From positions 186,001-250,000 of the forward strand of contig QPGO01000058.1 of the NCBI GenBank assembly GCA_008632985.1: DNA of 64,000 bases, given 5' to 3'. Source of the stretch: Psammoneis japonica (taxonomy: Eukaryota). Shown here piece after piece: positions 3,629 to 60,508 of this stretch. Under the pieces are notes generated by a model that saw only the letters and a list, made by a program, of their open reading frames with translations, was not told where the DNA came from and did no database searches. Numbering within the stretch: position 1 is the stretch's first letter; each line of letters begins with the position of its first letter. Made by a program: the position numbers and the translations under genes.

Positions 3629-4396
3629 AAAACAAAGCTTGCATCTCTTTTGCGCGAGACGTGCGTTTGAGTCGTGCTCGCCAGTCGTGTCATACGAACA
3701 CCCGCGAATTCCTTCTTCTGCGTTTTTTCCGGAAAAGCTAGGTTTTTGTATATGGACTTATCACCTTCTTTCAATCAAGAAACATTGACCTTGTGGGTTA
3801 CACCGAGTGTGCCATCTACAAGGTCGGTAGTTCGAGGTTGGAACGAGCCACGACTTCTTCAAGCCTTGTGTTTCATAGCCAATCGGTGTCTATCACCCAG
3901 GTTAGCTAGAATAGTAACACGGTAGTTCGAAAGAACTCTTGCTTCTGATTAGGACCAAACTCAATCGGGGAATAAAAGAAGTCAAACTCGATACTCGTTC
4001 TTTTGTTTCTTGTCCCTTGGAATCCTTTTTGCCAAGATAAAGAGAAGAGTGTGCTGGACTCTTCACTTCTCATGCGTTCGCATTGCAGAGCCGTTGAATC
4101 AAGTCTCCCTCTATGCAGGAAGTGTTTTAGCATTAAGCATACGATGACTCGGGAAGTCGATGTGGCAGCGCTAACTGCATGCTCTACTCTAGCTAGAGTC
4201 TACGAGCAGTGAGGCAATAAAAAGGAGATGTGGGATGTCGGCTGTCTCGAGCAAATAAAATGTGGGCGAGTGTGCTCATCTGGGATGTTCGAGCTCTGTG
4301 TCGCGCTGTCATCAGTGGGGGTGGGATGCTCGAGATGGTCTTCAGGGCTTTGAGGAGCCTCCTTCAGATGCTCTTAAAACACATCTGCAATTGGGA
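3617..4396. repeat. Copy A of a duplicated ~700-bp segment (5' end/promoter of the vWA gene)
   Basis: Aligns by eye with 9444-10149 and partly with 4405-4858, e.g. ttcgaggttggaacgagccacgacttcttcaagccttg at ~3831 and ~9659. Confidence 0.9.
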
Positions 4397-4404
4397 GACG
4401 GCTT

Positions 4405-4858
4405 TTTCAAGCCTTGTGTTTCACAGCCCATCGGTGTTTCTCACCCACCCAGGTTGGCCAGAACAATGACATGGCAGTTAGAAAGAAAACCAAACTCAAT
4501 CGGGAAACAAAAAAGTCAAACATGACACTTGTTCTTTTGTTTCTTGTCCCTTGGAAGCCCCTTTTGCCAAGATTAAATTTGCATTGCAGAGCCATTGAAT
4601 CAAGTCTCCCTCCATGCAGGAAGTGTTTTGGCACTGAGCACGCGATGACTCAGGAAGTCGATGTGGCAGCACCAACTGGCAAAAGGAGATGAGGGATGCC
4701 GGCTGTCTCTGGCAAACAAAATGTGGGCAAGTGTGCTCATCTGGGATGTTTGAGCTCTGTGTTGTGCTGTCATCAGTGGAGGTGGGATGCTTGAGATGGT
4801 CTTCAGGGCTTTGAGGAGCCTCCTTCAGATGTTCTTAAAACACATCTGCAATTGGGGG
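4405..4858. repeat. Copy C: tandem, more decayed partial duplicate of 3857-4396
   Basis: gagatggtcttcagggctttgaggagcctccttcagatg occurs at ~4332 and ~4793; gaagtcgatgtggcagc at ~4153 and ~4654. Confidence 0.9.
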
Positions 4859-7800
4859 ACATTGTGGAGCAAAGCGATGCTGATTCCCTGACTGTGCTGA
4901 AAGAAATGGCATCTCCAGACAGCCACTCAGACTGTTTGCACAATGTGCATTAATGTGCAAAGGAGACCCAGAGGACAAATGTTGCCAGAGTTGAGCTGGC
5001 AGGGGGGTTCTCATGATTTTCCATCCAGGAAAAGTCAAAGCAGTTCAGGCTGTCTCTGCAAGGCTGTCTCTTTGATGAGACTTCAAACTCCTTGGTGCAA
5101 AAAGATGGACATGGTCTGGACTGTGATTTTGCCACATGACCTGTGCAGAAAAAGACACATGCTGGCAACAGGAGGACATTCCCTGCTGACAGGGAACACA
5201 GTTGCAGAAGTTTGTGGTGGCCAGATTGTTGGTGCAAATGTGCAGGGCCGTGAGTGGAACAGCTCTGAAGTTTTCAAAGGCATGTTGTTGCTGCCCAAAC
5301 AAACAAAATTTCCAACCCCCTTTTTGCTGCATGTCAACATCAGCTCTGAGTGCAGCAACTTGATTTGGGGCTTTTCAGGTTTTTGAGTGTGAGAATTGCA
5401 AGCTGGGTCATGAAGGAAACCAATTTGGGAAAAAGTGACCAAAACCCAAAAGAGAGCTGAAAGTCTTTTCGTCTTGGCAACTGTGCCCTGCAATCATGTC
5501 AAGGCAGCATTTTGGACATTTGTTGCATCAAGAGCAGCAGATGAACAGGAGGCAGGCATGAGACCAGTTGAGGTGTGGCAGACAAAAGATTCTAGATTGC
5601 TTCAGAGACTGGGCTCAAGCAGCAGACACAGTTCCGATGCAGGTTAAAAAGGACATGACAAGCTGCAGCTCAGCCCTCCACCACCACAACTTGAGCTGGG
5701 AGTCTCTCAGGGGCAACTTGCTTCAATCAGGCATGGAGGAGGATCTGGCCAGGTTTGTTTTGGAAGACAAGAGGGGCATTCCTGACCACTTCCAGGAGGG
5801 ACATCCTTGGCGCAACTGCAGTGGCATCCCTCCTCCTTCCCAGTTCTTGGAGCAGCACTGCCTTTGCCCCTTTGATGGCATCAATGCCAACAAGGCAAGG
5901 AGATGCCGGCTCTGTCAAACACAAAGGAGCATGGTGCAATGACAGCCAGCAGCACTGAAAGGAAGAAATTGGAGAAGGACACAGCAGAGGATTTCCCAAG
6001 TGATGGCAAGGAGGAGGAGATGCCTTTTGCTGCTCTGGCTTTGTTTCCAGGCTGCTCATTTTTGTTCTCATTGATGAAATGTTGCCAGGCACTGGAGCTG
6101 AGACTTCTGAAGTGAGCAACTTTTTGCGTGGCTCCAGACAATGGCGCTGAAGAGGATTTGGAGGACATGGGTGGCCAGCGGAACTGGCCATCTTGCATGG
6201 TGCTTTTGTGGAGCTTTGATGGTGGGTTGTTGGCTGGTTTGCTGGCTTCTTTGAATGCAAACAAAAAATCTTCATGCTCTTTTAGAGATGATGGCAAGCA
6301 ATGTCAATGGGGATGCTCATGTTGTCAGGGCTTTTTTGGAATCAGCGGTGGTGCGTTGGATCTTTTGGTGTGGTTGTTGGCGCTTTTTGCCATTGCAACA
6401 AATGAAAATGGGGGTGACAGCCATTGACATAAAAAAGGACTCTTGGGGTGCAGAATGAGGTGCATGAGAGAGGTTGGTGCAGCAAAGCAATTGTGCCCAA
6501 AAAAGGAAATTTGCTGTTGCAAATCACTGGACTGGTTGGCAGAGACATTGATTGCTGTCATCAGTGCATGTTGTTGCCACAGAGCTGAAGAATGAAAGTG
6601 TGCATGTCAACTCACATCAAACCCAGGACATCTGCTTGCCACTGGGGGCATCTTCTGGTTTTGGAAGGCGGATGTTTTGCTGCTGAACCATGGTTGCTTG
6701 ATGGCGGCGCAGCTCAATGAAAAAGTCAATTAAAACCATGCTCAACAATTTTTCTTTTTCTTTTTGATGCTGACAAGTTGGGTCCTTCCTGTCAATGTCA
6801 CCAACAAATTGATTTGTTGCGGCACAACAAGGCATGGTGTGTGTGATCTGGCGGCCCACAGCGTGAGTGACTCCTCAATTCCAAACAAGACTGAAAGACC
6901 CGTTGTCTGCTCCTCAATCCCCAACAAGACTGAAAGACCAACCACTGCATCTTAAAAGGCATTTGCGGCTTTTTTGGCTTGAATTTGGCCAAACAGCTCA
7001 TGGTTTGCATGATTTTTCCTGAATTTCACCATGCTTCACTGTGGTGAAAACATCAAGCCACAAGTCTGAGATGGGCGATGTGGTCCATCTGTCAAATCTC
7101 ATCTGCTTTGCATTTGTTGTGCATCAAAGGTCACACATGCACCAAATGTTTGAGGACAGACCACTGCATTTTGGAGAAATGTCAAGATTGCCACAATCAT
7201 TGTGCTCCAATCATGGTGCCAGATGTGGCCTCGTTTTCATGCACAACTGGGTGTGAATGTGAACAATTTTTGCACTCAAAAACAAACACTGCAAATGACT
7301 GTGGGGTTTGCGCTTCTTGGAGAAGAAAGAGGACAAAACACAACTGGTTGCCAGGTTGTGCAACTGGAGCGCATGAAACATCCTCACCTGATTGGATCTT
7401 GAGGACAATCTGGCAATTCTGGAAGCTGTGACTGAACCATCCTCCCAAGGCTTCTTCTTTGAGCTTCTCTTCTGCTTTGCATTGCAAAAGTGGCACCGTG
7501 ACACAACATCTTTGAAAGAGGCAGGTTTTGCCCCACTGGGTCTGACTTCCTGTGACTTTCTCAGCAAAGCTTGCAATGTTCCACCAGAGTCCATTAAGTC
7601 AGGAGCCTCCAGCCTCAATTGCCACTGTGTTTGCCTCAAATCTGAGACATTTCAACCAAGGCCCAGGGCAGCAGCAACACCAGTCAAGAAACACACTGAT
7701 GACTTTGTTGTTGCAGCACTTGCAGAAAATTGTGGGCTTGTCTTTCTCATTCAACGCAAGCTTGAGCAGAGCACAGATTGTCTCAAGGCTGCACAAATGA

Positions 7801-9179
7801 CATTCCCTGACCTTCTGCTGCATCAGTCAAATGAAAGAAGGCTCGATGATGCTGCACTTGGTTGAAAAAACATGTGTGATTGCAAGATGGCAGATGCCAG
7901 CAAAAAGGTGGAACATGACAAATTGCAAGACTTGCTGGGCATGGAAACATGGGGAGATCACACAGTTTGTGTTGTTCACCTTGTTGTGGCATGTCCAGGC
8001 AAGGTTTTGAAGCTTGAAGACACCAGATGGATTGCAAAAACATCACGGCATTGTGGTGCTTCACAGAAGAGCTTGCAGCACTGCCAGAAAGAGTCCCTGA
8101 CACAAATGAAGAAAAGCATCCATTGTTGGTCATTGTTGAGGAGAAGCTGTTGCAAAACAGTTGCTGGGTGACCATGTCTTTGGCAGATTGAAAGAAGCAC
8201 TGATGATGTGCCAATGAGTCTGTCTGATCTTTTGCCTTGTGAGGGTGGCACTGGCATGGTCGATGACAAAGAAGAGTGAGAACCTTTTGGTCACAGGGTG
8301 CCAAATGTGTGTTGCTTGCAGATTCCTTGTCATCTCACTGTCTTTGGCTTGCCACTTGCTCCCTCAGTTGTCAGAGCCAGCTGCTTGCGCTGCAGTCAAC
8401 TCTTTTTTTTTGGGGGGGGGGGGGGGAGATCAACCAGAGCATCTCTGTTGACCTCTTTCATTCAAGTGGTCACCATGCTTGACTTTAGGATCCACATGAA
8501 ATTGAGTGACAAGGTTGGCAGCCTGGTGACACCTGGTTTTCTGGCCTGGAGTTGAGCTGGCTGCAAGGCTCTGGGTGAAAAAGGGCTTCTGACAGCCCAG
8601 ACATCATTGTGGGTGAATCACTTTCCACAGTCAATTGTGGAATGCATCCACACTGGCAGCCAAGATCATCATGTTTCAAATCACAAGGTCCTTGTCATCT
8701 GGCCTTCTGAAGACCAACATTTCTCAGGAAAGTTCGTTCCGGTTGACCAACCCAGCACCGCGCCGGCAGTGGTGTGTCACCGGTGCTTTGCAGGTCTGGC
8801 ATGAGGCAAATGGTGAGAATTTTTTTGGATTTTTGTTTTTTTCTGTTGTTGAGTTTGTTCAGTTGTCGTCACCAACAATTGCCTGCTGCTTGTTTGTGAA
8901 AGGTTGCTTTGGGCTGTGAACACTCCAGCCCCATCCTCCAAAATGGTTTCCTGATGCCAGAAAGCAACCCAAGAAAGAGACCCCACCAACAGTCACACCT
9001 GCCATCCCCATGGACCATTCCAGACATTCTGCTGTCACCAAGCAGAGTTGAGGAACCAGATTTCAAGTCTGCAATGAATGGCAACTCTGCTTCTTAAAAT
9101 GTTCATTTGTCAGGCAACAAGACAGGTCTCGCAAAATCAGCAATGTTGGAAGCACAGTTGTTGAGCACATCTGCAAAAG

Positions 9180-9275
9180 AATGCAGAAGATGACTGCATC
9201 AAGCTCCATGCTGTGACAATGGTTGATCCTGCAACCCAATGGTTTGAGATCATTGAAGTCCCAACAAAGACATCT
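9180..9275 (+). mobile_element. Ty3/Gypsy-type integrase core fragment
   Basis: Translates KLHAVTMVDPATQWFEIIEVPTK, matching the TMIDPATGWFEI pattern of Gypsy integrases. The fragment is short. Confidence 0.6.
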
Positions 9276-9443
9276 TGTGCAGAATCGCAATCAAAGACAT
9301 CCAAAAGGAGGTCGAATGCCGACAAAAAGGAGGTGCAAACACTGACCCTGTTGAGTCTGGCCATTTTGCTCTTCCACTCTTGTTCAAACACAAGCCAGCC
9401 ATTGCCATGGCACATGGCTGTCCAGCGGAGTGTGACCAATGGA

Positions 9444-10149
9444 TTTGTGAGTCCATGAGACAAGAACCAGCTTTGATGTGAGGTGTGCATTTGAGTTGTG
9501 CTCTTCAGTCGTGTCATGCTGACACCCTCGGCAAACTCCTCTTTCTGTGTGTTTTTCTGGAAGAACAAAGTTTTTGCACATGGACTTGTCACATTCTTTC
9601 AATCAAGAGTCATTGAACTTGTGAGTTGCATCAAGTGTGGCATCCACAAGGTTGGTGGTTCGAGGTTGGAACGAGCCACGACTTCTTCAAGCCTTGTTTT
9701 TCACAGCCTCCCTTTTGTCCAAGCAGGCTGGAAAAATGGCAACACAGCAGTTTGAAGGAACTCCTGCTTCTGATTGGGATCAAACTCAATCAGGGAATGA
9801 AAGGAGCAAAACTTGATGCTCATTCTTTTGTCTCCAGTCCCTGAATCCCCTTTTTGCCACAACAGAGAGAAAGAGAAGCGCGTGCTCTGCTCTTCTGAAA
9901 AGAACTTTGACCTTTGGGTCGGTGTTTTTGTCACTTTCGCATTGTAGAGCTGTTGAATCAAGTCTCTCGCTATGTGCTCCGAGGAAGCATTTTAGCATTA
10001 AGGATGCCTCGGAAAGTCGATGTGGCAGCGCTAACTACATGCTCTATTTTAGAGTCTACGAGTAAAATGTGGTCTGTCGAGCAAATAAAATGTGGGCGAG
10101 TGTGCTAATCTGTGATGTTCGAGCTCTTTCTCGCGCTATCATCAGTGGG
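9444..10149. repeat. Copy B of the duplicated segment; its right end is the upstream region of the TTL gene
   Basis: Direct repeat of 3617-4320. The minus strand reads MTRLKSTTQMHTS, against MTRLASTTQTHVS at 3693. Confidence 0.9.
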
Positions 10150-10342
10150 GTTCCAGGTTGCGGGATCGAATATCTTTTGCGCCGCCGCGGAACCCAAGCG
10201 GAACCAGAGAGCGCACTTCATGCCGTATGCCGTCGCTTGTTCGGGAAGCATGTTGCGATTGCGCTTTTGCATCCTGCTTATTGTGGTTGTTTCGTTTGCA
10301 TTTGCGATTGATCGCGGAGAGGAGTGCACTGAGCCCAACACA

Positions 10343-11233
10343 ATGTCCGACAAAGATCGCCCCACGGTAGAAGAACTCTTGTCTCGCAGCAAGGATGAGA
10401 TTGTCACTTTTTTGTCTGAGATTTATGAACACTCTGCTTGGGTGGCGGAAAAACTGACAGAGCAAGATTACTCAGGCGTCAAGACCGTGTCATCCTTGGC
10501 CAACGCTATGAAGGACATTGTGAACTCGTCGTCGAGGCAGCCCAAGATGGATTTGTTACGTGCTCATCCCGATCTGTGTGCTCGCGTCGGGCAGCTGGAG
10601 GACTTGACGGCATCCAGTCAAGAAGAGCAGTCCAGTGCCGGCTTACAATCACTTACTGACCAAGAAATGAAGAAATTTACTGACCTCAATACAAAGTACA
10701 GCTCCAAATTTGGTTTTCCTTTCATCCTGGCGGTCCGAAATTCCACGAAACGAACCGTTCTGGCGGCACTAGCGGGACGCGTCACCAACAGTGAGGAGGT
10801 GGAGTTTAATATCGCCTTGCAGCAGGTTCACAAGATCGCATGGATGAGACTCTTGGCTTCTATAAATACAGATGACGCAGCAGGTTTTCTCACCTGTCAT
10901 GTCTTGGATACCGCCAACGGTTGTCCTGCGGCAAACATGAGAATTACCCTTCACCGTTTATCCCCGACCAAGGAATTGATAGGAGAGTATACTACCAACG
11001 ACGACGGTCGCCTAGAAAATGGACCTGCCCTCAAGGGAAAGGATTTTATGGTTGGAACTTATGAATGGACCTTTTATGTTGCTGACTACTTTGCCTTTCG
11101 GGGAACCGAGACTGCAGGGACTCCCTTCTTGGATCAAGTGCCGCTTCGATTTGGGATCGATAACCCTGATGATCATTATCATGTGCCTCTCTTGGTTAGT
11201 CCTTGGAGCTTCTCCACTTACAGAGGAAGCTAA
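10343..11233 (+). CDS. TTL: Bifunctional OHCU decarboxylase / 5-hydroxyisourate hydrolase (allantoin synthase)
   Basis: OHCU decarboxylase motifs YEHSAWVAE, AHPDL, SQEEQSSAGL and KFGFPFILAVR; HIU hydrolase motifs LTCHVLDTANGCPA, TNDDGR, HYHVPLLVSPWSFSTYRGS (YRGS terminus). ATG at 10343. Confidence 0.95.
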   Translation: MSDKDRPTVEELLSRSKDEIVTFLSEIYEHSAWVAEKLTEQDYSGVKTVSSLANAMKDIVNSSSRQPKMDLLRAHPDLCARVGQLEDLTASSQEEQSSAGLQSLTDQEMKKFTDLNTKYSSKFGFPFILAVRNSTKRTVLAALAGRVTNSEEVEFNIALQQVHKIAWMRLLASINTDDAAGFLTCHVLDTANGCPAANMRITLHRLSPTKELIGEYTTNDDGRLENGPALKGKDFMVGTYEWTFYVADYFAFRGTETAGTPFLDQVPLRFGIDNPDDHYHVPLLVSPWSFSTYRGS

Positions 11234-11539
11234 GATTCGATTTACATAAATCTTTGGTCTTTGACTACTGTTTGTTTTAAATTTTTATCTGCCGGCATGC
11301 GCATCCTGCGGTTTCACCCACACCCTGAATCCTTCAACCGGTTGTTGCTTGTTGTCATCACGCACCCGCGATTATTCATTTTCAGGCCATCTGTGTTCAA
11401 GACCATGATCTGGTATTTCCTTTTGTTCGCGTCTTTTCCCTTCCGTTTCTCCAATTTTGGTGCCGTGTTGCTGTCATGTTGTGCGGTGCAGCACGCACGA
11501 AATTGGCTTGACATCTTCGCTGACATCTGCCCCACTCCC

Positions 11540-12960
11540 ACAAGCCAGCTGTCTTGAGCACACACAGTGATGGAGCATTGTCCAGTGTCAATGAAGGAGG
11601 TCACACTGCCTTGCCTGTGTGACTAAAGTTCTGGATTCTGGGGGGCAGTGGTGGTGGGCAGTCTGGGTCACACAGCTGGCCGCTCACTTGTGGGGCCCAG
11701 TTGAAAGCCCGTTGGACTTAAAGAAAGACCAGCCAGTGGTGTGCCAAAATGGTGCACCCAACAAAACCTTGCAACTGCACCAGCAGCAGACCCATTGTCA
11801 TTGTGTGTGTCAAAGCTTGCTTTGTTTTGGGAGGGGGGTGAGAGCAAGATTCACCCCCATCACATCTTTGAAAAATGCAGCCCATTTTTGTCAAGGGCAG
11901 CACTGGCACACTGCTCCACGAGCAACAAGACAGCAAGAAAATGACTGGTGTAAGAGAAGGTGGTTGGGGCAAGAGCTGTCACACTTGCAGCTGTGGTCAC
12001 ACCCCCATGCCTTTGCCTTGAAATTGCAGAGGCCTGGGGGAGCATTTGTCTCCAGAAAAAACCAAACCTGGAACAGAGAGAATGGGTTTGTGGCCAGAGC
12101 CTCATTGTGTGACCCATGATCTGCAGCTTGCCATGGTGGCTTGCAGCTGTCGCTGCTTGTTGAGAGGTTGGTTGTGGCCATTTTGGACTTGCTTTGGCCA
12201 CAGCCAAAGTGGCGGGCTTTTGCCTGCTTCCATCATTGTGATGCTCTCATCCTCTGCCAGATTGGCATTGTCCCACAATCTGTCAGCAGCAGCACCTTTT
12301 CCCAGCAATTGACCCCCCTGTGCACACCATGATGTGACCAAAGAACCAAGAAGGAAACCAAGAAATGGAGAGAGAGAGAGAGCAGCACTCTTGCTGCTGC
12401 ACCTGAGTGTCTCTGGGCTCTTTTGTGGTCTTGCTTGGCTGTCATGACAAGACAGCCTCTTCTGCAGCTGGCTGGCTGGAGACAAGCACCACACATCATC
12501 ACACCCAACACAGTTTTATTTGCATGCTTTTCAGCTTGCCAGCCTCCAGAAGGTGAGCCTTTCTTCTCTCCTCTTCCTTTTGTGTGCGCCCCGGTGTGTG
12601 TGGGGGGGGTCTCTTTCCTGTGGATTTGCTTGCCTTTTTTTGCCATCCTCTCCCTTTCTCTGTCTCCTCTAGATTGGGAGAGCATGGGTTTGTGGAAGCT
12701 GGCCCTCCCTCCTCATTCATCCTCCTCATCTGTGACAGCTGCTGCATGCTGTGCAAGAGCTCTCTTGTGTCTTTTCAGCATGTTTGTTCTGGCGGTCAAC
12801 ACCAAAAGACAACCCCCTCGCACTTTTGACATGGGAAATGTTGTGCGTGCAAGTTGATGCATGATTTTCACTGTAAGACCACTAATGTAAACCGAAAGCG
12901 TGCAATCACAGAGCAAAATTCAAAGTGGTGCATCATGTTCAATGAGTGTGTGCGGTTGGC
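11540..12960. other. TpA/CpG-depleted island 2 (unidentified decayed repeat)
   Basis: Abrupt loss of TA and CG with TG/CA excess. Overlapping ORFs are almost Tyr-free and no domain is recognisable. Confidence 0.8.
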
Positions 12961-15125: not shown

Positions 15126-15150
15126 TATGTACAGTATCATTCTATCGTAG

Positions 15151-18901: not shown

Positions 18902-19133
18902 GAAGAAGCGAGAAGCGCCAGGAGTGATGTCAACAGCCGGCAACTATGAAAGAAATGTTAATAAGTTAAGCGACGTGAAATATTGCAACGTATTGTATAA
19001 TGCATCTGTAGGCACCGCTCGAGCGCTTCCAGTTTCAATTCTCCTTTTGATTTTCTCTTTTGTTGTCAGAGTGCCCCAATCATCGCCTTGACGGTATTCT
19101 CGACCGTGAAGTTGATGTGCAACCCATCTGTAA

Positions 19134-37400: not shown

Positions 37401-37550
37401 AAAATGCACAAAGAGGGGAGGCACTGTCACAATCAGAGTGTCAAGAAAGAGGTTTGAAATTTTGCAAAGCTGGTCTTCCTCTGAAGACCTGTTGCACTGC
37501 ACAATTGCAGAAACTTTGTGCCTTTGCCACAACACATTAAGTCAAGAGCC

Positions 37551-42251: not shown

Positions 42252-42960
42252 TCAGGTGTCTTGCGGTTGTTGATCATTCTGAGGAACATCGGCATTGGGG
42301 TGGAGTGCAAAGTCTCCACCGGCAAGCATGTCATGAGCAAAGTTGTGCATGACAGGCTCAGCCTGCAAATGGAGATGGTGCAACATTTCATCTGATCTCC
42401 ACCGGCCTGAGAGCCGGATCAGGTCGGTGGTGTCAACACGGGCACAAAGAAGGGCTGCTGCACTGGCAGCACAGAGGCACCGAGCAGTGATGTCTCCTGG
42501 GTTGAAACCAAGAGCAGCAGGGCTGAGAGCAGTGACAGCAGTGTGGAGCATGCTGTTGACATTGGCAGGGGACACTTGTTGCCAGGAATTGTTTTTAAAG
42601 CAAACACCCAGGGAAGTGTCAGGCAATGCACCATGAGTGCACAAGTGTGTCACACATTGCCGGATGAGAGCTTGAGCAGGGCACAGGTTGTGGTGTCCTG
42701 ACAAACCAAAGCCCAACACTTTGCCAGGGACTCCATTCTTTTGAGTGGTGAAGGCAAGAGTGGCAAAGTTTGTGGCGTCAAGCTGCGTGTGAGTGGCTTG
42801 AAACGTGTCAAGGTGCACGCCCCCCTGAGGACAAGCGCATGTCGGCCAGCCAAAAGGGCATTGCATTGGATGGTGTGGCAGCACATTCACCCAGGTGAAG
42901 CAAGAAAAAGAAGGCAATGGCCATCATGTTGGCGATGGCTTGCGTGCCAGGATTGTTGCT
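42252..42960 (-). pseudogene. Tyrosine recombinase of the Ngaro element
   Basis: AFFFLLHLGEC (for LLRPGEY), FTTQKNGV, LCPAQAL, DITARCLCAASAAALL and GRWRSDEMLHHLH (for MLRYLH). Confidence 0.88.
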
Positions 42961-43149
42961 GATGGCAGCAGCATGCATGTTCCACAGGACGACAGCCACT
43001 GGAGCTGGTTTGACACAGATGGGAGGTGGACTCTGCTTCTTGCAGCAATGGATTTGGTGGGGGCAAGGTGGAAATCCATGCCACCTTGGGATGTGTGGCG
43101 GGGATCCGTCCCCCCCATTGCAGCAAACATTTGCCCAGCCAAATGCCGA

Positions 43150-43830
43150 GGTGTTTAAGTGGGTGAGGGGATGCTTGAACATTGCAGAGGAGGTCTTGAT
43201 TGGCAAGATCTGCAACAGTTTCTGTGGCTGTGCAGAACAGCGGGGGTGAATTTGCCCAACCCATTGGTGGTCAGATTGAGAGGGCAACAAGTGGTGGTTC
43301 CCCAGGCAGGTTGGGAAACATGACACCCAACAGCGGCACTCTGTCGGGTGCCAGTTGCATGTGACAGTGGCCATCGGCTAGATCTATCTTCATGAGGCAG
43401 ACCTTGCCCTTCTTGGGGTCAGCAAGAAGGATTCATCATAGAAGGTGGTCGAAAGCTCATCCAAACTGCATGGACTTGACGGCTGCATTGGGCTGTGTGG
43501 CGGGGTCAAGGCCGCATGAGGTGCAGTTGACAACAGGCCTGGGTCGGCGGCCATGTTGTGGGATGACATCAACAGGACTGAGCCGCAATGTCAGGTTGTT
43601 TTGCACTTCAGCATGTGGAACCACAATCCAGAAGCCTTTTTCAATCATGTTGGCCATGTCTTCTTGCAGGAACTTGACATGCTCACAGGTGGAATTGTGA
43701 GGTCCCCTGTTGATGCTGGCGTCTAGCTCAGCCAATGTCCAGGGTGCGTCTGCCACAGTGACGGGCATGCCCCTGTGCTTGAAGGCGTGCAGCAGGCAAT
43801 GTGCTGGATGGCGTTGTGTGCTGCATGGCT
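43150..43830 (-). pseudogene. Reverse transcriptase N-terminal half of the Ngaro element (YxDD and RNase H deleted)
   Basis: RGPHNS, KGFWIVVPH, LRLSPVDVIPQHGRRPRPVVNC, SMQFG and MGWANSPPLFCTATETVADLAN. Confidence 0.85.
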
Positions 43831-46800: not shown

Positions 46801-47099
46801 CATCTGCTGAAAAGCTTGCAATGGGAAACACTCGCAAAGACAGTCACCATCCTCACATGTGCAATGGGTGTGGGGCAACTGTGGCATTGGGCAGTGTGCC
46901 CGAGTGTGTGCTCAACAATGTCAAATGACACAGGACTGATCACCCTGATGTTGGGTGGCCATGTGAACCCGTTGTCACAACACCATGAAGGCGCAGCCTC
47001 CATGACCATGCAGACTCACAACTGTTTGTTCCCTGTGTGGGACTCTGATGTTCTCTTTGCCACAGGATGGCAGCAGCAGCACGGGCAGTGGCACTTGCG

Positions 47100-50000
47100 A
47101 CTTTGGCCGTGGTGCCTGATGTCAATGCAGTCCTTTGAGTTTGTGGGATCACTGACCCAAACATGAGGGCAAGGTTGGTTTTCCATGAAGGATTTGCAAC
47201 TTTGGAGAATGTTGCAGTCATGGAAAATGACCACAATGTGGAAGATCTGGTGCAGAGGTCTGCTCATTGCACCATGGCAGATGGTCGTGTTGCTCTTGGC
47301 ACCATCCAAATCAAGAACTTGCAAACAAGCATTGGCAGGGCAGTGCCAAGACTCACTCAGAAGGAATCAGCCACTTGTTGCAGTGGATTTGAATGCAGCA
47401 GCTGTGGCTTCAGCTTGCAGTGGCAGGCGCATTGAAAAGGAACATGTGGAATTGGATGCGATGGTGAGTGGTCTTGCAAAGTTTAAGTCCAAGGACTTTG
47501 ATGTGTCAAGACACTTTCTTGAATCTCTTGGCACAGAAACATGGTGCATTGAAAGAGCCATTGCAATGTGTTGCAAGGACCATGCTGGCTCTGACTGCAT
47601 TTGTGGACACTCAACATGAACAGATGCACCAGTTGCCACTCGCTGGTGATGCGTGTGACAAGGACAATCACAGTGTGTGTCACATGTTGAAGGAACATTT
47701 GATGAACATGGCAGGATGGGCCTGGATTGAACCTTTTGATGCAATGGAAAATGGACGTGGAGCATTCAATGCATGGATCAATCATTGCAATGGACAGGGC
47801 AAGTTGAGCAAGCACATTCATTTGGCAATGGCAATGGTTGAAACGCCATTCTGCCAAAAGGATGGGGCACTGTCATTTGAGAAATTCAATGAGAAGCTCA
47901 CTGGTGCTTTTGCCACTTTAAACAAATCCCTGGACGATCTCGGAAATCTGAATGGCAGAAAGTTGACATTCTTTTGAAGGGCATTTGGACAGATGACCCT
48001 TGTCTTGTTGCTGCGATGGCTGTCATCAGCAGTCAGCATCCCCATGACTTTGCAGGGGCATGTGCTTGTTTCTCATTTGAAGTCTCTTGTTTGCATGCAG
48101 GTGCTCAGTTGGAGAAGCACAGCATTGTGCAAAGTGCAAGATCTCCTGGTGAGCCATGGAGGCGATGGTGGCTGCAATTTCTGTCAAGGTCGTGGTTGCG
48201 GAGGCAGGTTCAGTTGTGGTGGAGGTCATGGTGGATGTCAAGGAAGGGGCGGTGATTGTGCAACCATATTGACAGCGTTGATGCATCCGATCCTGCCAGG
48301 AGTTTTTCTCCTCAAGAATGGGGCAGGCTGCATTTCAGTGGGGGAATTGATTGTGTTTTTCAACTGTGCAAAACAGGGTTGCAGTGGTGGCCATGGATCT
48401 CCCACAGGATGACCTGGACATGATGGTGGAGGCAGGCATGTGGCTGAAGCCCATGTCCATTAAGAGGACCAAGGCCAAAACCAACAGCCGGATCAGACCC
48501 ACAGTCAAGGGGGCTGTGGCCGAGGTGCCGACAGTGACCGCGGTGGATGCAATGGATGTTCTTTGGGTTGGTGAGCTTGTCATGGTTCCACCTGACTGCC
48601 AGGGGTGGCGACAGCTGTTGGAGCTTTAGAGCATGTGTTGCACTTGTTTTTCTTGCTTGCGCTGCTCTTGTTGCTGTTGACCAAACCCCGCCGAATGTTT
48701 GGTTTGAAAGAAAAGGCAGCAACGAGGCGAATTGCTGTGATGCTGAAACGTTTGGTTTGATTGGCAAGTTCTGCTCCAATGGCTGACATGACAGCACCTG
48801 GTTTTGTTGCTTGGAATGAGTGTGACACTCACACGGATGCTTGTTGTGCTGGAGCAAGCTGGAAACTTGTGGAACTGACAAACCATGTGTGCAAGGTCCA
48901 TCCATTTCTAGAATCTCATGAGCCAATCAAACAAGTTCCTCTGGCACATTGTTGCACTGTGTGGACAGATCTGGAGACGACTCATGAACATCTGCTGGTT
49001 GGAGACCAGATGCCATGGTTTGGGACTGACACATGCAACACTCACTTTTGAATCCCAGCCAGGTGTGGGCACACAACATTCCTGTGCATGACAACCCCTG
49101 TGACACTCGAAACGGTTTTGGCATCAAAGCTGATGAGGCTTTCATCCCTTTTGACACCATGGGGATGATTGCATCTTTCAAGTCTCAGGTTCCTGCAGAT
49201 TGGGAGGAGCAGAACTTGCCAGTTGTGCTTTTGACAGGAGACGCATGTGATCTGATGGAAATCAACATGGGATTGCCGGGGCAAACTGGAGAACAAGCAG
49301 AGATGCACACCATTTGATTGTTGACTTCTGGCATGCAACAAGAGCAGGTTTTGGAGTTAAGGCGCAACAAGGTGAAGTCACAAGCGGTCAGTTGGGGCAA
49401 GGTCAAAGCAGAACTAACCCGTTTGTCCCCAGCTTGTCACCTTCAAGAACAATTTTGTGACAGGCTCATTGGCTCGGTCAATGTGACTTGCACGCATCGT
49501 GAAGATGTGGATGCCAAACAAAAGTCTGTTGAGGAGCTGCACAGCAAGGACAGACACTCCAAGGTTGGTGCCAAAGAGATGGCCCGGAAATGGAACATCG
49601 GCTTAGAAATGGTGAAAAACACCCTCAATGCAACTGCTCAACGAGGAGTGCACACGGCAACCCAGCCAATGTCAAGGAGAGCAAGAGTGGACCACCCAGA
49701 TCTGCACTGCAAATGCTTGAAGGGGACATGGTTCATGGACGTTGATGTCCAAGGTGAAATCTTTGCTTGGTGACACGTGTGCCAATGTTTGCACTCAGGG
49801 CAAATTTGTTAAAGTCGTGCCAATGGCCGCAAGGTTGGAGGCAGGTTTGTCTCTTGTTGAATTTACAGACAATGTTGGGGCACCGGAACATCTGATGTCA
49901 GACGGCACAGGCAAGTTCACTGGACATGCTGCTGAGTTTGTGAGGCACGCACATCATGTGAGGATCCAGCTCAGAACATTGGAACAAGGTTGCAAGAACC

Positions 50001-51655
50001 AGAGTCAAGCAGCAGAGCATTACATCAATTTCTTGGCCAAGCATTGGCGACTTCAAATGATGAAGAAAAAAAGGGTGCCAAAGAGATTGTGGGACTTTGG
50101 TCTCATTTGTGAGTCAGAGTTGATGTCACACATGGCAAGAGGCAGAGACAAGAGGACTGGGTGCAAAGAGGTCACTGGACAAATGCCAGAAACAGGCAAG
50201 CATTTGGACTTTGGTTTTTGCAACATGGTGTGGTGGTGGGACAGGCCCACCAAGCTGAGTGCAATGGATGACCTGCGATGGCTTGGTCAGTGGTTTGGCA
50301 TCACACACAAGGTTGGTTCAGACATGTGCTGCTGGATCATTGCAGAGAGCAGGAAGATGGTCTCCAAGACATTGGCAGAACATGCAAAGCAGGCCGACAT
50401 GGTGCAGCCCGACATTTGTGTCAAGGTTGACAAGTTCAATGAGCAACTGGATGAGTGACTGGATGATGCCAACTTTGTTCTGGAAGGCAATGAGGCAGTG
50501 CAGCATTTGCATTGGATGATCTTGCTGTGGATGACAACCCCGGTGTGGAACATGAAGGCGGCGTCATGCCAATGGATGAGGAACATGGGGACATGTTGTT
50601 GCCAGACGAACAACTGGATGATGACAATGAACAGGCGATCAACCAGCACCTGTGCATGGAACTCATGTTTGAGATTGGGATCAATGGTGAGCAATGAGGT
50701 GTTGCAACGAAATGGGCAAGAGGACAGGATGGGCATCCGATTGGGACTCGACATCAAAACCCTTTGTTCAACACTCAAGAGTGCAAAACAGAGCACACCA
50801 ATGGGACCACAGATGAACACACAGCCAATGTGATTGCCAAGAACATGTTTGCTCAGGTCAACAGCAAAGGCAACCAGCATTCTACATTGAAAGAGATGCA
50901 GGATCATGAGTTGATGGGTGACACAGTGCCAACAGCAGATGGAACAGTGCAAAGCAATGACGGGAAGGAGTTGAAAAGGATTGCTGCAAAAGGCTGGAAG
51001 CTGTTGGTTGCCTGGAAGGATGACAGCTCGTCATGGGTGAAATTGAAAGATCTGAAAGAGTCCAACCCTGTCAAAGTTGCTGGGCATGCTGTCACGAACA
51101 GGTTGACTGAGGAACCGGCATTTGCTTGGTGGGTCACGCACACATTGCATGAGTGGAGTCGCTTCATCTTGAAGATTGAGAGAAGAAGCATTGGCGCACA
51201 ACTCACAAATTCAGTGTTTGTTTGCCCAAGTCTATGAAGAAAGCCTTGCAGATTGACCAAGAAACGGGGACAGTGTTGAGAAGGTTCAGACCAAGGATGG
51301 ACACACAATTTTGGCAAGTTCACCGACGGCACATGTCAAAATGGCAATCAAGACGGTGGAAGGTCTCTCAGATGAAGACGGCAATGGGGAAGTCCTGAAG
51401 AACAGTGCCAAGGATCCCCTGCCCCCAAAGCACAAACCAGAGTTGGACATGATGGATGAATTGGGCCCTGACCTGGTGGACAGACATCTGCAGCTGGCTG
51501 GGATTTGTCATTGGAGGCGATCGAGTTGGGCCATGTTGATGTCTTGCACATGACATCTCAATCCTCTCCCAGCATCAAGCTAACCCAAGGAAGGGACATC
51601 TCGAGGCTTCACATCATGTGTTTGCGCATGTGAAGAAGCATCAAAATGTTGGGTT
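47100..51655 (+). mobile_element. CoDi-type Ty1/copia LTR retrotransposon remnant (gag-PR-IN-partial RT), 3' truncated
   Basis: Gag GWAWIEPFD..NGRGAFNAWINHCNGQG; protease NECDTHTDACCAG; integrase FTDNVGAPEHLMSDG...VPKRLWDFG; KGWKLLVAWKD.SSSWVKLKDLKESNPV...EPAFAWWV; RT end LSQHQANPRKGHLEA. The central RT is deleted near 51270. Confidence 0.92.
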
Positions 51656-52019
51656 TAGGTTCGAATTGACACTGTCACCACTTTCTCTTTAGGGCATTGT
51701 ACTTCCTCGTTCGGGTGGCGGTCTCCCCCGCACGCGTTGAACGTGGTGTTGACATCCGGGTCTCCAAGCGCAAGCCAACTACAATTACGTACTGTAAAAA
51801 AAGAGTCATACCGGTAGTCATCCTTGAAGAAGGCGACCGCGACATCCATCCCCCACCTACCACAGGCTCACACATACCATACCTACTAGACCTACCGGTA
51901 ACCTTACTTGTACAAGATTTTTTTTTTCTTCCAGAGCAGAAAAGCGATCTTTTGTTGATGCACATCGAAGACTTCATTGCAAAAAAAAAGGACTTCCAAC
52001 ACAATCAATTGCTTTCGAC

Positions 52020-54997: not shown

Positions 54998-55955
54998 GCT
55001 CCTTACACTACTAGCTAGAGAGTAGCGTGACCCTTACACTACTAGTAGTAGCGCGTCGACAAAACGATCGAGATGAGGTACTCCTATTACCAAGTTATGA
55101 AGGGAGAAGAGAAAAGATTTCACCGAAGCTCTACATGAAGATCATAGTAAAATAAACAAGTCTAGGAAAGCACCACACTGGCTTTTCTCTAGGAGACTCT
55201 GATCTGGACCTAGCAAGAGGTAGGGCTGTAGTAGCCGGTGCAGCACTGTGGATCCGTTGTTGCTTGTGAAGCCACGGGGCTGGCAATCATGGGAGCTCTT
55301 TCGTGAAACTGTGGATGCCAACAAAACAAAAATTCCATTGAAAAAACGGGGTCCAAAAGTTTGCTGCTGCTGGCAGCATTGCACCACCCGCAAACGGCAT
55401 TGTTGTCATTCTTTCGAACCGACCCACACTTGATGACACTTTTGGACCTGACATCATCATTGTCACCACACCCCCACCACCAAATGGGAGCTTGTGGTGC
55501 CGGGTCAACATGGGACGCAGTGCCGTTGCACCTGGTGCTCTTGCAGTGCCGGTGCTTGGCATGGCAATTGTGCTTTGATTTGCGCACACGCATCCTTTGG
55601 TTGCACCGCCACCCTGGAAAGTTTGTTGTGCTCGTTCAATCACAGGGAATGGAATGTGGTGCATTTTTCCATCTGCCCATCTTTGCATCGATTGTCACAC
55701 CAACCAAAAGATTGTGCCATGGTCAGCTGTCACCATTGCAGTTCTGGCATTGCCCCACACACTCGAGTCCATTCCTTGTCTGGGCATGTTTTTCCTGTCA
55801 CACATGCTCTTTTGTTGTTTTTGGCCACTCACTCCATGGATGGAATGTTGCGCTGCACCACCGTCAGCAGGGACAGCAAGAGCACTCGATGGACTTGCAA
55901 CTGTTTTTGTTCAAAGTGCCACAGAGGCACCACAGACAGTGATGTGTCACTCACT

Positions 55956-56330
55956 TCAAGCATGCATTGGTGGGTGCTTGAAGGCCTTGGACAATTCTTT
56001 TGCACAACAACAACAAGGGCCCACATGACAACCAAGCCATGCAGAGAGGATTGTCCTGTGTTCACCAAATTTGCCCCCAAAAGGTGGCTCAAAAATGGCA
56101 GATGTCTTTCTGCAGCCATTTTTTCCAACCAAGACAATGTTCAGTGCACACCCTTTCTTCATCAACTCACAAAGCTGCTTGCCCATTGGTGTGGTTGGCT
56201 GTTCTGGTGCAAAGCCAATGTGCATGTCCATCCCACCCTGTGTGTGCGAGAGATCAACTTTGCCGAAAACTCCCAGCTTGGATGCTTTGCAAAGAGACAC
56301 AGCCACAGGTGCTTGCATCTCTGCCACCAC
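55956..56330 (-). pseudogene. P-loop NTPase fragment, possibly Crinkler-type
   Basis: NIVLVGKNGCRKTSAIF resembles a decayed Walker A (GxxGxGKT). Confidence 0.3.
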
Positions 56331-57234
56331 CGCTGCATCTCAATGTGTGCTTGCTGCTGCCAGGAGCTCACAATCAGAGCCATCAGCCATGCAGTCCAGG
56401 TGGACACTGGCAGATTGTGCATCCTGCACCTTCTGTCCATTCCAGGGCAGGGCAGCTGATGTCTTGAAGGGATTTGCCTCTTTCTCTTTTTCTGAAAAAA
56501 AAAACCGTTAGAACCCTTGTTGCAACAAGACTGTGGGAACACACATGAAGTTCAAGAGCAGCGCACTTGCCATCTCATTGTTTCTCAAAGATGCACTTGC
56601 ACAGCAAATTGCAAATTGCCGTGGGCATCCCTTGCAATGTGAGAGCCCTGTGGCAATCCTCTTCTTGAGTGGGAAGATTTCCACAGACAAGTCTGCTCAG
56701 ATGCTGCTCTCTCTCTCCAATCCAGACTTTGTGAGACCAGCCGTTGCATCAACACCGCTCCCTTTTGTTTTCCTCTGCATGCAGATGCCACACTGTGTCC
56801 TTGATGAAATCCATCCAGCGCTTGTCCTCCCACTTGTTTCATCCCATTTCATCTTGGACAGCCAGCCACTCATTGCAGTTGTTGTTTGTTTTGGTCACAG
56901 CATGTGACGGCAGCAAGTTGTTTGCAATTGCAATGAGAGGGCCATCACAAGTTGCAACAGAAACGAAATGTTTCACTTTCTGGTCACCATGGAGAGGCTC
57001 GTCTGTGCTTGGAACTTTGCCCACAGTGCACAGCTTGAGCCAATGGATGTCAACATGGAGAGAATTGCTGTGTGCATCCTTGATTGCAGTTTTCACATGA
57101 TGCACAGAAAATCTTTTTTCACTTCTGCACAACAAGGCTGGTCATCCCCAAGCTGACACCAGACTTCCATTTGTTGTCTGCTGAGAGAATCAAATCTCAT
57201 GTTGATGGGGTTGGTCTTTTCTGCTTCATGATTG

Positions 57235-57714
57235 CTGATGCCTCTCTTGTTCAGGATGTGTTGCATTCTGGAGTTTGCTCAATGCAGCGAGGGAGTGCAA
57301 AAGAGCGTTGATCAGTGAATGAACAGCTGCAATGGTCCTCATCACTCAACACCTTTTCCAAATTCAAAACATCTCCATTCACTCTCTTTGTGCAACTTCT
57401 CCCAAGCAGCCCCCTCTCCCACTCCCTCTGACAACCCAACCAATTTTGACACCTCTTCCTGTGCTCACTCACTGATGCCTCTCTTGTTTGGGATGTGTTG
57501 CATTCTGGAGTTTGTTTGGTGTGATGAGGGAGTGCAAAAACACCGTTGATCAGTGAATGAGCAGCTGCAATGGTCCTCATTACTCAACACCTTTTCCAAA
57601 TTCAAAACATCTCTCCATTCACTCTCTTTGCACAGCTTCTCACAAGCAACCCTCTCTCCCACTCCCTCTGACAACCCTGCCAATTTGACACCTCTTCCTG
57701 CGCTCACTCTCTGA
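57235..57714. repeat. Tandem duplication with a ~238-bp unit
   Basis: ctgatgcctctcttgtt...ctcaacaccttttccaaattcaaaacatctc...gctcactc at 57235 and 57472. Confidence 0.9.
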
Positions 57715-59489
57715 CCAGCCTGCACTTGAGTCACCCTCTTGTCCCTCCCAGTTGCATTCCCCACCCCAGAACAAATGGGTGAAGTTTGAAAACTCTGCCC
57801 TCTGCGTGCAAACACACCTGCTGCCCTCCACCATCTGACCCCAGAGTGATGCTCTCTCTCCAACCTTGAGAAAACCTCACTCAAACGCCAACCCGGCAAA
57901 GCTCTGCAACCTTTTGCAGACTCTGCCAATCATTGATGCAAGACACCTCCTGACCTGCAACCTCTGACCAGCCATGCTTGCTCTCTGTCCTCATCACTCA
58001 GTGCCTTTTCCAAAATTCAAAGCAGCTCAATCTGCAGCCAGGGCTTCACATGGTTGCTCATCTGAGACTCCTGAGGTTGTTGCACCTCAACATCATGACA
58101 ACTGGCTCAGCACCTGAGCCACATGCAAGAGGAGTCTAAAAAAAACACAAAAACAAATGGGGACAACAAGAAAGCCACAATGACAGCCACACATGCCTTG
58201 AGTGTCACAAACAACATCCATCTTCATCTTCTTTGTGAGATGTGTTCACCCCAACCACCTGTGTTTTTGTTGTTGCATTTCAACATGGTGAGTTGCACAG
58301 CACGTGAGCTGGGCAAGAGGAGAACAGCAATTCTCAGAAAACACAAAAAACAAAGGGAAAAGAGAGAGCCAAAATGACAGCTGCACACACACCTTGTGCC
58401 AGAACTTGTTGAGCACAAGTGCATCATCAAGAGCAGCATTGCCATCATCAAGTGCATTCTTTGAAAAGACTTTCAAATCCTTTTAAAGCACTCAGCACCT
58501 GGGTGCTTGGGGAGCATTGCAAAGCTGCAAACATGCCAGAAGTTGTTGAGCACTTGCACATTGCACAGCAGCACTGCTGGCATCATTGTGGATTTGCCTT
58601 GCAAAGAACTGAAAAACACAAAACTCAAGGTGCAAACTCAAACAAAATGTGTGTGCACCTGCACCTGAAAGAGCATGCAAAAAGAGAAAACATGCTGGGA
58701 GAAAGCACAGCAATGCCCCACATGGAATGAACACATTTTTGCATGCCTGGCACATCCTTCTGACTTTTTTCATCATGTTTTGCTGTTGTTGTTGGCAAAT
58801 GCACCAAACCTGAAGTGTGGTGTGGCACCTGAGTCATGCAAAAGTGACAAGAAGCATGCTTGGAAAGCACAGAAATGCTGTGCACAGAATGAGCATGCTC
58901 ATGGCATCATGCCAGCTCCACCACATGCAGTCATGCTGTCTTGCTGTCACAGCACTGTCAGAATGACTTGCAACAACCAGCCCTGGAATTTGCTTTCAGC
59001 TCTTTGTTGATGATGGGGCTGTCAGAAACTGGTCTCGGAGTGCTGCTGCTGCTTGCATCTTTTTTTTTTCTGTGCCTGGAAAGGTTGCCACATCAGTGAG
59101 TCACGTGCAACTTCTGAACCTCAGACTTTAATGCCAGGGTGCCATCAGGAAGAGCACTCCTTTTGTCTTTGTTTTTGTCAACTTGGCACCAAACAGCACA
59201 CCAGCTGCTTCCGCACAATGCACAGACATGCAAGTCATTGGATGGGCTGATGGACATCTGAGGGTTGGACAGACAGCTGGCTGCTGGCATTGCAGGGCTG
59301 GAGAGATGCTGGCAGCCCCAGGGCCCTGGGATCTGCTGTGTGGTGTTTGTGCTGATTCCATGGTGGATGCCAGGTTGGTTGTTGGCAAAGAGTGATGAAG
59401 CATTTCTCATCTTTGCTCCCTTGTTGAGCCCCAAGCAGGTTGTGTGAGTCATCTGTCTCATTGTCTTGTTTGCAGATGTGTGCTTGAGT

Positions 59490-59670
59490 TTGTCATGCCA
59501 TCATCAGACTCATTTGTGGCAAGACTCAGAAAAACTTGGTGTGCCCACAACATCAAAGCACTCCAAAAAATGACAGGAACAAACAAAGAGACATGTTTGC
59601 AACAGCGGCAATCATCAAGATCTCTCATGCTGTTGCAGTGCTCTTCCTTGCAGTTGTGTCTGCACCCTCC
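59490..59670 (+). pseudogene. Decayed copy of the promoter and signal-peptide region of the gene at 60509
   Basis: ggcaatcatcaagatctctcatgctgttgcagtgc against ggcaatcatcaagatcacccatgccgttgcagtgc. The ATG is lost. Confidence 0.8.
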
Positions 59671-60508
59671 ATTGCCTCACTTGCAACAATCAACAATTGA
59701 CATTGCTGTGCATTGTGCAGTCACATCGTCCTTTCCCAATCATTTTTTTGATGCAGCTCACACGCACGCCTTGTCATGTGAATTTTAAAGATGCTGCACT
59801 TGTTGCAGCAATGTTCCAAGCTTTGAAAATGGGCACAAGTTGTGCCCCACTTTTGGACAGTGTGATGGGTCTTTGCCAAAATGTTGCCCCTGACCTGCCC
59901 TCTCCTTGTGCCCCCGCCCACCCCCCTTTGAGCTGTGCAACAAAGAAGACGGCTGGCGGTGCAGCATCATGGTGTGTGCAGGGAGCAGAAGGCACTCCAC
60001 TGAAAATTTAAAAAAAAATGTTTGTGTGGACTTTTTCTCAAAGCTTGGTTTGCAAGAAAACCCTTGTCAATTCTGGCTGGGCCAGCCGCTGATGTGAGCC
60101 AGAACTTGGCAAAGCTGGTGGGAAAAGCTGCGCCACTTGATTTGCTGTGTTCAACATTGCTGGGAGGCCTTGTTTTTGATGTTTTGTTGAAGCTGTCAAA
60201 TGAGGAGCACAGTGGCGTTGCCTTTGGAACAAGGTTGACTGGTGGCTGGCTGGGCTGCACTGGTGTGGATCACGAAGATTAGATGAGTTGCAAACCCCAG
60301 AAAACGACCATGATCCGCGCACGCAGCACACCGCAAACTTGAGTCTCACAATGAGTCCCGCAAGATGCGCGTGCTTCAGTCTGATCGTGGTTCAGTCTGG
60401 TCACGCCACTTCGCGGCAAAACTCAGACAAAACTTGCTGTTGTGCTCACAATATATATCGAAACACTCGTAGAAGAAAAGATCAAACCAAAATACATTAT
60501 CTACAACA

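Follow-up and report, generated by a model that had tools for sequence, protein, structure and literature searches.

Repeat-induced point mutation (RIP), which operates in Neurospora and other ascomycetes, is triggered by duplication, changes C to T at CpA, creates TpA, and lowers the GC content. APOBEC3 and ADAR enzymes work on RNA or cDNA prior to integration, leaving changes that are strand polarized and clustered. Targeted A:T>G:C hypermutation of DNA was, to our knowledge, not known in nature before one preprint of 2026. Here we analyze a 64,000-nt window (the whole stretch of DNA that was studied) of contig QPGO01000058.1 from the diatom Psammoneis japonica, in which four islands are almost devoid of TpA, poor in CpG, and rich in TpG and CpA. 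Two context-specific transition processes have gone nearly to completion in these sharply bounded, gene-free domains, which hold decayed mobile elements.

The closest described case is the chlorarachniophyte Bigelowiella natans, in which silent, integrated DNA of nucleocytoplasmic large DNA viruses (NCLDV) and virophages undergoes A:T>G:C hypermutation at TpA only (Mettrop et al., bioRxiv 10.64898/2026.01.13.699255). According to the main text of that preprint, 231 of the 302 nuclear mutations in mutation-accumulation lines fell into two silent integrated viral regions, 230 of these 231 were A>G or T>C, and the GC-biased ones were all on TpA. The rate was about 6e-7 per site per generation, and only some of the lines were affected. 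The B. natans genome further holds 124 clusters that are poor in TpA, rich in CpA plus TpG, and enriched in RT and DDE domains; the enzyme that the authors have in mind, as a proposal only, is an ADAT2-like DNA adenine deaminase. CpG, diatoms, and flanking bases are not mentioned in the main text, and the supplements may hold data on flanking context (bioRxiv 10.64898/2026.01.13.699255). A first, sequence-only reading of the P. japonica window had named no described pathway that acts in this way, a claim that does not survive the preprint's report of TpA-only T/A>C/G hypermutation. Our literature searches turned up no account of TpA loss in the transposons of diatoms, and the B. natans preprint was the sole precedent. 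Because this one preprint describes the same signature, the signature in P. japonica is not categorically new. P. japonica provides the second case, which is distant in phylogeny from the first and much more saturated, and the present analysis adds the sequence rule, the behavior of the domains, and the co-occurrence with CpG decay.

The composition pattern of the four islands (Table 1) is confirmed. Per-kilobase observed/expected (o/e) dinucleotide ratios in the island blocks were 0.00 to 0.19 for TA, 0.02 to 0.49 for CG, and 1.5 to 2.2 for TG and CA, versus about 0.5 to 0.85, about 1.0, and about 1.15, respectively, in the intervening genes. When pooled, the islands (38,600 bp) contain 135 TA (o/e of 0.05), 548 CG (0.24), 4491 TG (1.79), and 4178 CA (1.81); the pooled flanks (24,004 bp) contain 969 TA (0.59), 1329 CG (0.97), 1729 TG (1.16), and 1735 CA (1.15). 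The remaining 12 dinucleotides show little difference between islands and flanks, with island o/e values of 0.87 to 1.22. At flank density, about 1558 TA and about 2137 CG would be expected in the islands, which leaves a deficit of about 1423 TA plus about 1589 CG, or about 3012 sites, next to a TG plus CA surplus of about 3099. Since the gain of TG and CA is about as large as the loss of TA and CG, it fits transitions within the YpR class. The GC content is flat across the window, at 0.46 to 0.55 in the islands as in the flanks, because the TpA and CpG processes push it in opposite directions. The sequence-only reading had reported four islands of this kind between normal genes and had warned that GC scans would miss them, and both statements are borne out; the six strings that it quoted were also all found where it had placed them.

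The edges of TA depletion were placed by Poisson change-point fits, with 2-lnL support intervals of 50 to 200 bp. The islands fill the intergenic space up to about 60 to 680 bp from the neighboring open reading frames (ORFs).

The direction of change can be read from a repeat of about 660 to 740 bp that is present in three copies. One copy, which sits upstream of a Ro60-like gene, has normal composition and serves as the ancestral reference. Compared with it, the tandem second copy has lost 16 of 17 ancestral TA, the lone survivor being a TTAA; the base changes at its TA sites are 10 T>C, 5 A>G, and 2 transversions. About 15 of 20 CG are also lost in this copy, and other contexts changed by 4 to 6%. 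In the third copy, the part to the left of the island edge at 9945 is mutated and the part to the right is spared and shows no excess of change at TA or CG (9% and 13 to 14%). Where both mutated copies have lost the same ancestral TA, they frequently differ in the result, one having TG and its counterpart CA. Since one copy is wholly spared and the edge cuts another, the target is set by position and not by repetition.

Repeats within the islands tell the same story of independent change. The two long terminal repeat (LTR)-like direct repeats of island 3, which lie 4.4 kb apart, differ at 22 bases, 18 of them at sites where TG or CA in one copy faces TG, CA, TA, or CG in the other. These 18 comprise 10 bases in five TG-versus-CA double sites, 2 at TA versus TG/CA, and 6 at CG versus TG/CA. 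Two further in-island repeat pairs have four TG-versus-CA double sites each. Such double sites between copies show that each copy was mutated on its own once duplication had taken place.

A coding outgroup was provided by a degenerate Ty1/Copia-like LTR retrotransposon remnant, which consists of a gag-like part (47112 to 48363) and a pol part with an internal deletion (48761 to 51653). One of its ORFs, at 49721 to 50455, has 1001 phmmer homologues in a library of 1.84 billion proteins (best E value of 6e-50), and in three of six long homologues a Copia-type RVT_2 domain follows downstream of the matching region. A metagenome scan with a six-row alignment yielded 44 related loci with at most 57% amino acid identity across the whole ORF, and the extent and strand of the gag-pol remnant were mapped by tblastn with the ORFs of these relatives. 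Tyrosine is conserved among the relatives at 26 of 654 conserved columns, and the remnant has no tyrosine at any of them. It has CAY (His) at 13, TGY (Cys) at 9, and other codons at 4. Conserved arginines were replaced by His (9), Gln (6), Cys (5), and Trp (4), and conserved CGN codons became CAN in 15 cases and TGN in 9. The outcome at the conserved Tyr codons depends on the preceding base: after a pyrimidine, TG is found six times and CA once, which follows the flanking-base rule given below; after a purine, CA is found 15 times versus TG 3 times. The latter suggests a sense-strand T>C bias that is absent from the overall TG/CA balance.

The spared and mutated repeat copies, the Tyr codons, and the in-island repeat pairs therefore agree that TpA was destroyed by A:T>G:C changes, the direction that the sequence-only reading had taken from duplicates. 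Its claim of a second process at TpA, opposite to RIP and beyond 5-methylcytosine (5mC) deamination, is supported now that the polarity has been established with outgroups, and the mutational spectrum agrees as well, with TA loss at 16 of 17 sites against 4 to 6% change in other contexts.

TA depletion is not intrinsic to the element family, because the 44 related loci have TA o/e values of 0.38 to 0.88 (CG, 0.21 to 1.45); none of their 697 500-bp windows falls below a TA o/e of 0.15. An intrinsic or foreign composition as the cause was rejected on these values. One of the metagenome loci (L036), which is mildly TA depleted (o/e of 0.38; 0.20 to 0.55 along its length) and has TG/CA values of 1.3 to 1.4, may be a copy that the process has affected in part in a different organism. 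The family also includes the public predicted proteins P0209 (149 amino acids), P0124, and P0125. Among the 150 best library matches, P0209 is the only relative free of Tyr. Cys, His, and Trp each make up about 4% of its residues, and Ile makes up 0.7%; it has Cys, His, or Trp where its relatives have Tyr and is probably a further hypermutated copy in some public assembly.

The bases around TA determine its fate. In IUPAC notation, TTAA is 0.96 times as dense in the islands as in the flanks (40 versus 26 sites); the corresponding ratio is 0.04 to 0.23 for the half-blocked sites TTAB or VTAA and 0.008 to 0.10 for VTAB. TTAA is thus immune, a TA followed by A resists, and an A followed by C, G, or T is efficiently mutated. 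Where the outcome could be polarized, TTAB gave TG in five of five cases, and VTAA gave CA in four and TG in two. The gains of tetranucleotides per kilobase were +4.91 for TTGC versus +1.66 for TCAC. These values fit a model in which each strand of a TA would present its own half-site, independent of the other and blocked if the target A precedes another A. The A-rich stretch at 38601 to 39200 appears as a gap in island 3. It is not normal DNA, because 7 of its 12 TA are TTAA; the others are three VTAA, one TTAC, and one GTAG. With the immunity of TTAA, candidate enzymes can be tested against a concrete biochemical fingerprint.

The losses of TpA and CpG are co-located but separable. At six of the eight edges, the CpG change point lies 70 to 255 bp inside the TA change point, and the other two edges are ambiguous. 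In island 3, TA loss is uniform, while the CpG o/e of its blocks ranges from 0.04 to 0.49. By density ratios, the log-scale decay of non-TTAA TA is about twice that of CpG. CpG loss is stronger in WCGW (density ratio of 0.14 to 0.17) than in SCGS (0.40 to 0.46), and no clear nucleosome-like periodicity was seen among the surviving CpG. A second metagenome locus (L034) has a CpG o/e of 0.21 and a normal TA o/e of 0.72. This is CpG decay alone, so the two processes can occur apart. The proposal in the first reading that CpG decay is coupled to TpA loss thus stands as far as the shared domains go and is better put as co-location, since the edges are offset and the extent of CpG loss varies against a uniform TA loss. 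Through the offset of their edges, the two losses provide a testable link to chromatin.

We compared the window with reference-free Logan contigs of a public sequencing run of the same organism, X1, which contains 93% of the sampled words of positions 2001 to 12000. A 2232-bp contig matches 4802 to 7033 without a difference, a 1283-bp contig matches 8437 to 9684 with one difference, and a 4815-bp contig covers 9668 to 14476 and so runs from flank through island 2 into flank. The X1 word depth is 54 to 71 in the islands and about 63 in the flanks. The longest X1 record is 315 kb, which argues that the reads are accurate. In each of the five island segments, TG and CA follow one another in random order (runs-test z of −1.32 to +0.98), and no strand clustering of TG versus CA was found in these segments. 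Since misreading of a symmetrically modified TA on each strand predicts tracts of all TG or all CA or else strand-discordant calls, such misreading is contradicted. A base-calling artifact, which the first reading had raised against itself, is therefore not what the reads point to: the X1 contigs, possibly the assembly's own data, reproduce the island sequence at flank-like depth. In a 20-kb stretch, the listed 40 of 417 variant sites include 12 in islands 1 and 2 between the window and X1; 6 of these 12 set CG against TG/CA, and 1 sets TG against TA. CpG decay appears to be still polymorphic, with the TA targets exhausted.

The changes are germline-fixed mutations made in place in the chromosome; they came after insertion, are dinucleotide specific, are bounded by domains, and affect both strands. 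We consider it probable, with a good deal of room for doubt, that they were caused by enzymatic, domain-targeted DNA adenine deamination together with 5mC deamination. In such a mechanism, TpA would become TpG or CpA by an A:T>G:C change on one strand of each TA, adenine being enzymatically converted to hypoxanthine in DNA. The putative adenine deaminase would have T-A-(C/G/T) specificity and would be recruited to, or admitted by, silent chromatin, and the deaminated adenine would be fixed as a mutation at the next replication. CpG would become TpG or CpA by deamination of 5mC. Diatom transposons are methylated, loss of DNMT5a in Phaeodactylum tricornutum removes methylation and de-represses transposons, and some diatoms have a RID-related DNMT4 of unknown function, as the cited article reports (PMC9998398). 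We read the CpG process as 5mC deamination because diatom transposons are CpG methylated. Targeting would be by position, in a domain that ends a few hundred base pairs short of the neighboring genes, and not by sequence repetition. The process may be the same as the one seen live in the B. natans mutation-accumulation lines, either homologous or analogous to it. With every Tyr codon lost, Arg CGN codons changed, and TATA-like signals removed, inactivation would be irreversible, which would make the process a genome defense analogous to RIP with the opposite chemistry.

The same sequence outcome would arise if the T of TpA were the target and were oxidized in silent chromatin by a TET/JBP-type enzyme to 5-hydroxymethyluracil (5hmU) or 5-formyluracil, which mispairs with G and gives T>C. 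Oxidized thymine is mutagenic, and 5hmU in dinoflagellates prefers TpA. The flanking rule reads equally well as a T not preceded by T, and on the sense strand T>C is the commoner change at the conserved Tyr codons (16 CA versus 9 TG). However, nothing in our analysis points to bases or enzymes of this kind in diatoms, and the authors of the B. natans preprint, in its main text, favor adenine deamination as their hypothesis; we regard thymine oxidation as unlikely. We give about the same low weight to a passive bias of replication or repair in heterochromatin that would erode TA in islands that are simply old, with no dedicated system at work. An example would be a mismatch glycosylase that acts on methylated DNA and resolves T:G or A:C mismatches to G:C. 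Aberrant excision of thymine by TDG is reportedly documented, and the TA and CpG losses do occupy nearly the same domains. Yet TA loss is faster and fuller than CpG loss, with 16 of 17 TA gone in the youngest pair against 4 to 6% of other sites; TTAA is fully immune; the TA domain extends beyond the domain of CpG decay at six of eight edges; and the B. natans process, as its main text has it, is episodic, runs 1000-fold above background, and lacks a C>T component.

It is very improbable that transposon RNA or cDNA was hyperedited, by ADAR-like A>I and APOBEC-like C>U changes, and then integrated. The preference of ADAR for a 5′ U, noted in the discussion of the B. natans preprint, would suit this account, as would the fact that one remnant is a retrotransposon. 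However, both strands are affected with interleaved outcomes and without strand-polarized clustering, the direct-repeat copies at one locus diverged by independent TG-versus-CA changes, and an edge cuts through a repeat whose neighboring copy is spared, with near-total depletion in the island. An artifact of sequencing or base calling at modified bases in methylated DNA has a similarly slight chance. The library type of X1 is unrecorded and all three runs come from one sample, but the exact island contigs at a depth of 54 to 71, equal to the flanks, the 315-kb record, the random interleaving of TG and CA, and the expected amino acid replacements in the coding remnant all speak against it. The least credible account is that everything is explained by RIP or by a RIP-like C>T process, for which the RID-related DNMT4 of some diatoms might be responsible. 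Part of the CpG>TpG change could come from such a process; the process would, however, create TpA where TpA is destroyed, so that for the TpA part it is already refuted, and it does not agree with the sparing of a repeat copy beside a gene.

Several points weigh against domain-targeted adenine deamination plus 5mC deamination as the cause. We infer both the silent state of the domains and the presence of 5mC, and the enzyme of TpA loss is putative. An A not followed by A on one strand is a T not preceded by T on the other, so the rule does not separate the chemistries, and sequence alone cannot tell adenine deamination from T-directed chemistry. The CA bias at purine-preceded Tyr codons (15:3) does not follow from the half-site rule, although both strands have the same context class there. 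Only one element type was recognized in about 39 kb of islands. X1 is one sample from one study with an unrecorded library type and may be the assembly's own data, in which case it brings no independence of sequencing chemistry. The B. natans system may or may not be homologous, since the main text on it reports neither a CpG component nor a flanking-base rule.

Table 1. Features of the P. japonica window (positions in the window)
Feature	Position	Strand	Evidence
Island 1, TA- and CG-depleted, TG/CA-enriched domain	4260..9945		TA change points, o/e ratios, exact X1 contig matches
Island 2, immediately 3′ of the OHCU decarboxylase/HIUase gene	11415..12870		Change points; X1 contig flank-island-flank
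Island 3, single continuous 27-kb domain	24120..51580		Change points, o/e ratios
Island 4	55235..60450		Change points, o/e ratios
Spared, normal-composition copy of the ~660- to 740-bp repeat (ancestral reference)	3661..4399	+	Self-BLAST, alignment, polarized counts
Tandem second repeat copy, fully hypermutated	4398..4860	+	Alignment, polarized counts
Third repeat copy, cut by island edge 9945	9485..10150	+	Alignment, polarized counts, change point
Direct repeat, LTR-like pair member	41824..42019	+	Self-BLAST, mismatch classes
Direct repeat, LTR-like partner	46261..46456	+	Self-BLAST, mismatch classes
Degenerate Ty1/Copia-like LTR retrotransposon remnant	47112..51686	+	phmmer, RVT_2 in homologues, tblastn, codon fates
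A-rich stretch in island 3 with surviving refractory TTAA and xTAA sites	38601..39200		
OHCU decarboxylase + HIUase/transthyretin gene, between islands 1 and 2	10112..11233	+	Pfam; diatom homologues
High-copy dispersed repeat in island 1	6960..7300		X1 word depth of 2893 in bin 6671-7337

The ORFs that flank the islands are ordinary genes. By Pfam, they encode XPG, a Ro60-like vWA protein, OHCU decarboxylase fused to HIUase, a kinase, PAP2 with an FAD-binding domain, DUF1995, and inositol monophosphatase. The OHCU decarboxylase/HIUase gene has normal composition (TA, 0.56; CG, 1.01), and its protein is up to 73% identical to its best relatives, which include diatom proteins of Bacillariaceae, Mayamaea, Nitzschia, and Cylindrotheca. 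Judged by these relatives, the host would be a raphid pennate diatom with no entry of its own in the protein database. No tRNA genes were found in the window.

On both strands, the islands contain frames without a stop, 327 of which reach at least 70 codons and some of which exceed 320. They are abundant because TAA and TAG are gone; TGA is the only stop codon left, and the products lack Tyr. Among 16 island ORFs of at least 150 amino acids, no Pfam family was found. A Pfam scan of 230 of the 327 stop-to-stop ORFs of at least 70 amino acids (all 140 of the first part plus 90 of 187 by length) gave no transposon domain at the cutoff, and a looser rescan of 12 ORFs added nothing. The best subthreshold match was to ZSWIM1-3_RNaseH-like at 29333 to 29920 on the plus strand (E value of 8e-4; 19.7 bits versus a cutoff of 27.2). 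This stretch may represent a second kind of element in island 3, with a putative RNaseH-like domain of a ZSWIM1-3/MULE-type transposase. A word-based homology search with 31449 to 32420 and 43460 to 44296 gave no match. Most of the island DNA is unrecognizable, and what is recognized amounts to one Copia-like remnant, repeats, and a weak MULE-like match. These do fit the first description of the domains as transposon islands, which is otherwise more than the bulk of their DNA can bear out. Islands of this kind would yield inflated numbers of spurious ORFs that are miscalled as genes and would hide transposons from domain searches.

The short dispersed repeat in island 1 has an X1 depth of about 2900, compared with about 60 elsewhere, and has many different flanks, loose ends, and joints. 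A region of normal composition at 13341 to 14674 and 14398 to 14972 has internal direct repeats (14398 to 14518 versus 14838 to 14972). In another run, X2, this region has by far the highest depth, 1136 to 1835. X2 has a very uneven depth, with most island bins uncovered, a transcriptome-like profile although it is not recorded as RNA.

The footprint in a diatom means that the process is not peculiar to one chlorarachniophyte, that it reaches transposons besides viral inserts, and that it is guided by domains and not by repetition. We tentatively suggest, while leaning toward doubt, that an ancient defense by chromatin-guided adenine editing of DNA is common to diatoms and chlorarachniophytes and widespread in the stramenopile-alveolate-rhizarian (SAR) supergroup, and that in it a natural deaminase would read T-A-(not A) in silent domains. 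If true, this would be an A:T-directed mirror image of RIP, erasing every TpA of invading DNA and invisible to GC scans. Diatoms include transformable models, and a natural DNA adenine deaminase would interest base-editing research.

Compared with the known systems, the P. japonica islands share the loss of CG to TG/CA in the same domains with the CpG decay by 5mC deamination of vertebrates and plants. That process covers only about half of the TG/CA gain here, however, and cannot remove TA. With RIP, the islands share irreversible, dinucleotide-specific transition hypermutation that kills mobile DNA and leaves compositional islands beside normal genes. In contrast to RIP, TpA is not raised and GC is not lowered (TpA o/e of 0.05; GC content of 0.46 to 0.55), and duplication neither triggers nor limits the process, as the repeat copy at 3661 to 4399 has escaped mutation and the 9945 edge falls within a repeat. 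Hyperediting by APOBEC3 and ADAR resembles the proposed process in being a deaminase-based mutational inactivation of mobile elements, including the 5′-U preference of ADAR, whereas the changes here arise in chromosomal DNA, affect the two strands in an interleaved manner, and stop at domain edges.

The likeness to B. natans is the closest. In both, A:T>G:C changes confined to TpA give TpG or CpA (here at 16 of 17 TA sites and at 22 of 26 Tyr codons that became CAY or TGY), discrete domains of foreign or mobile DNA are affected (here four islands) while neighboring host genes are not, repetition plays no part, as the spared and the edge-cut copies indicate here, and the long-term footprint is poor in TpA and rich in CpA plus TpG. 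The two cases differ in the host, a rhizarian there and a stramenopile here, and in the degree of loss, with a TA o/e of 0.45 given in the main text of the preprint for the NCLDV region against a saturated 0.05 here. They also differ in the DNA affected, which is viral in B. natans and consists of transposon remnants with added CpG decay in P. japonica. The immunity of TTAA and the edge offsets are described only for P. japonica, and live mutation rates only for B. natans.

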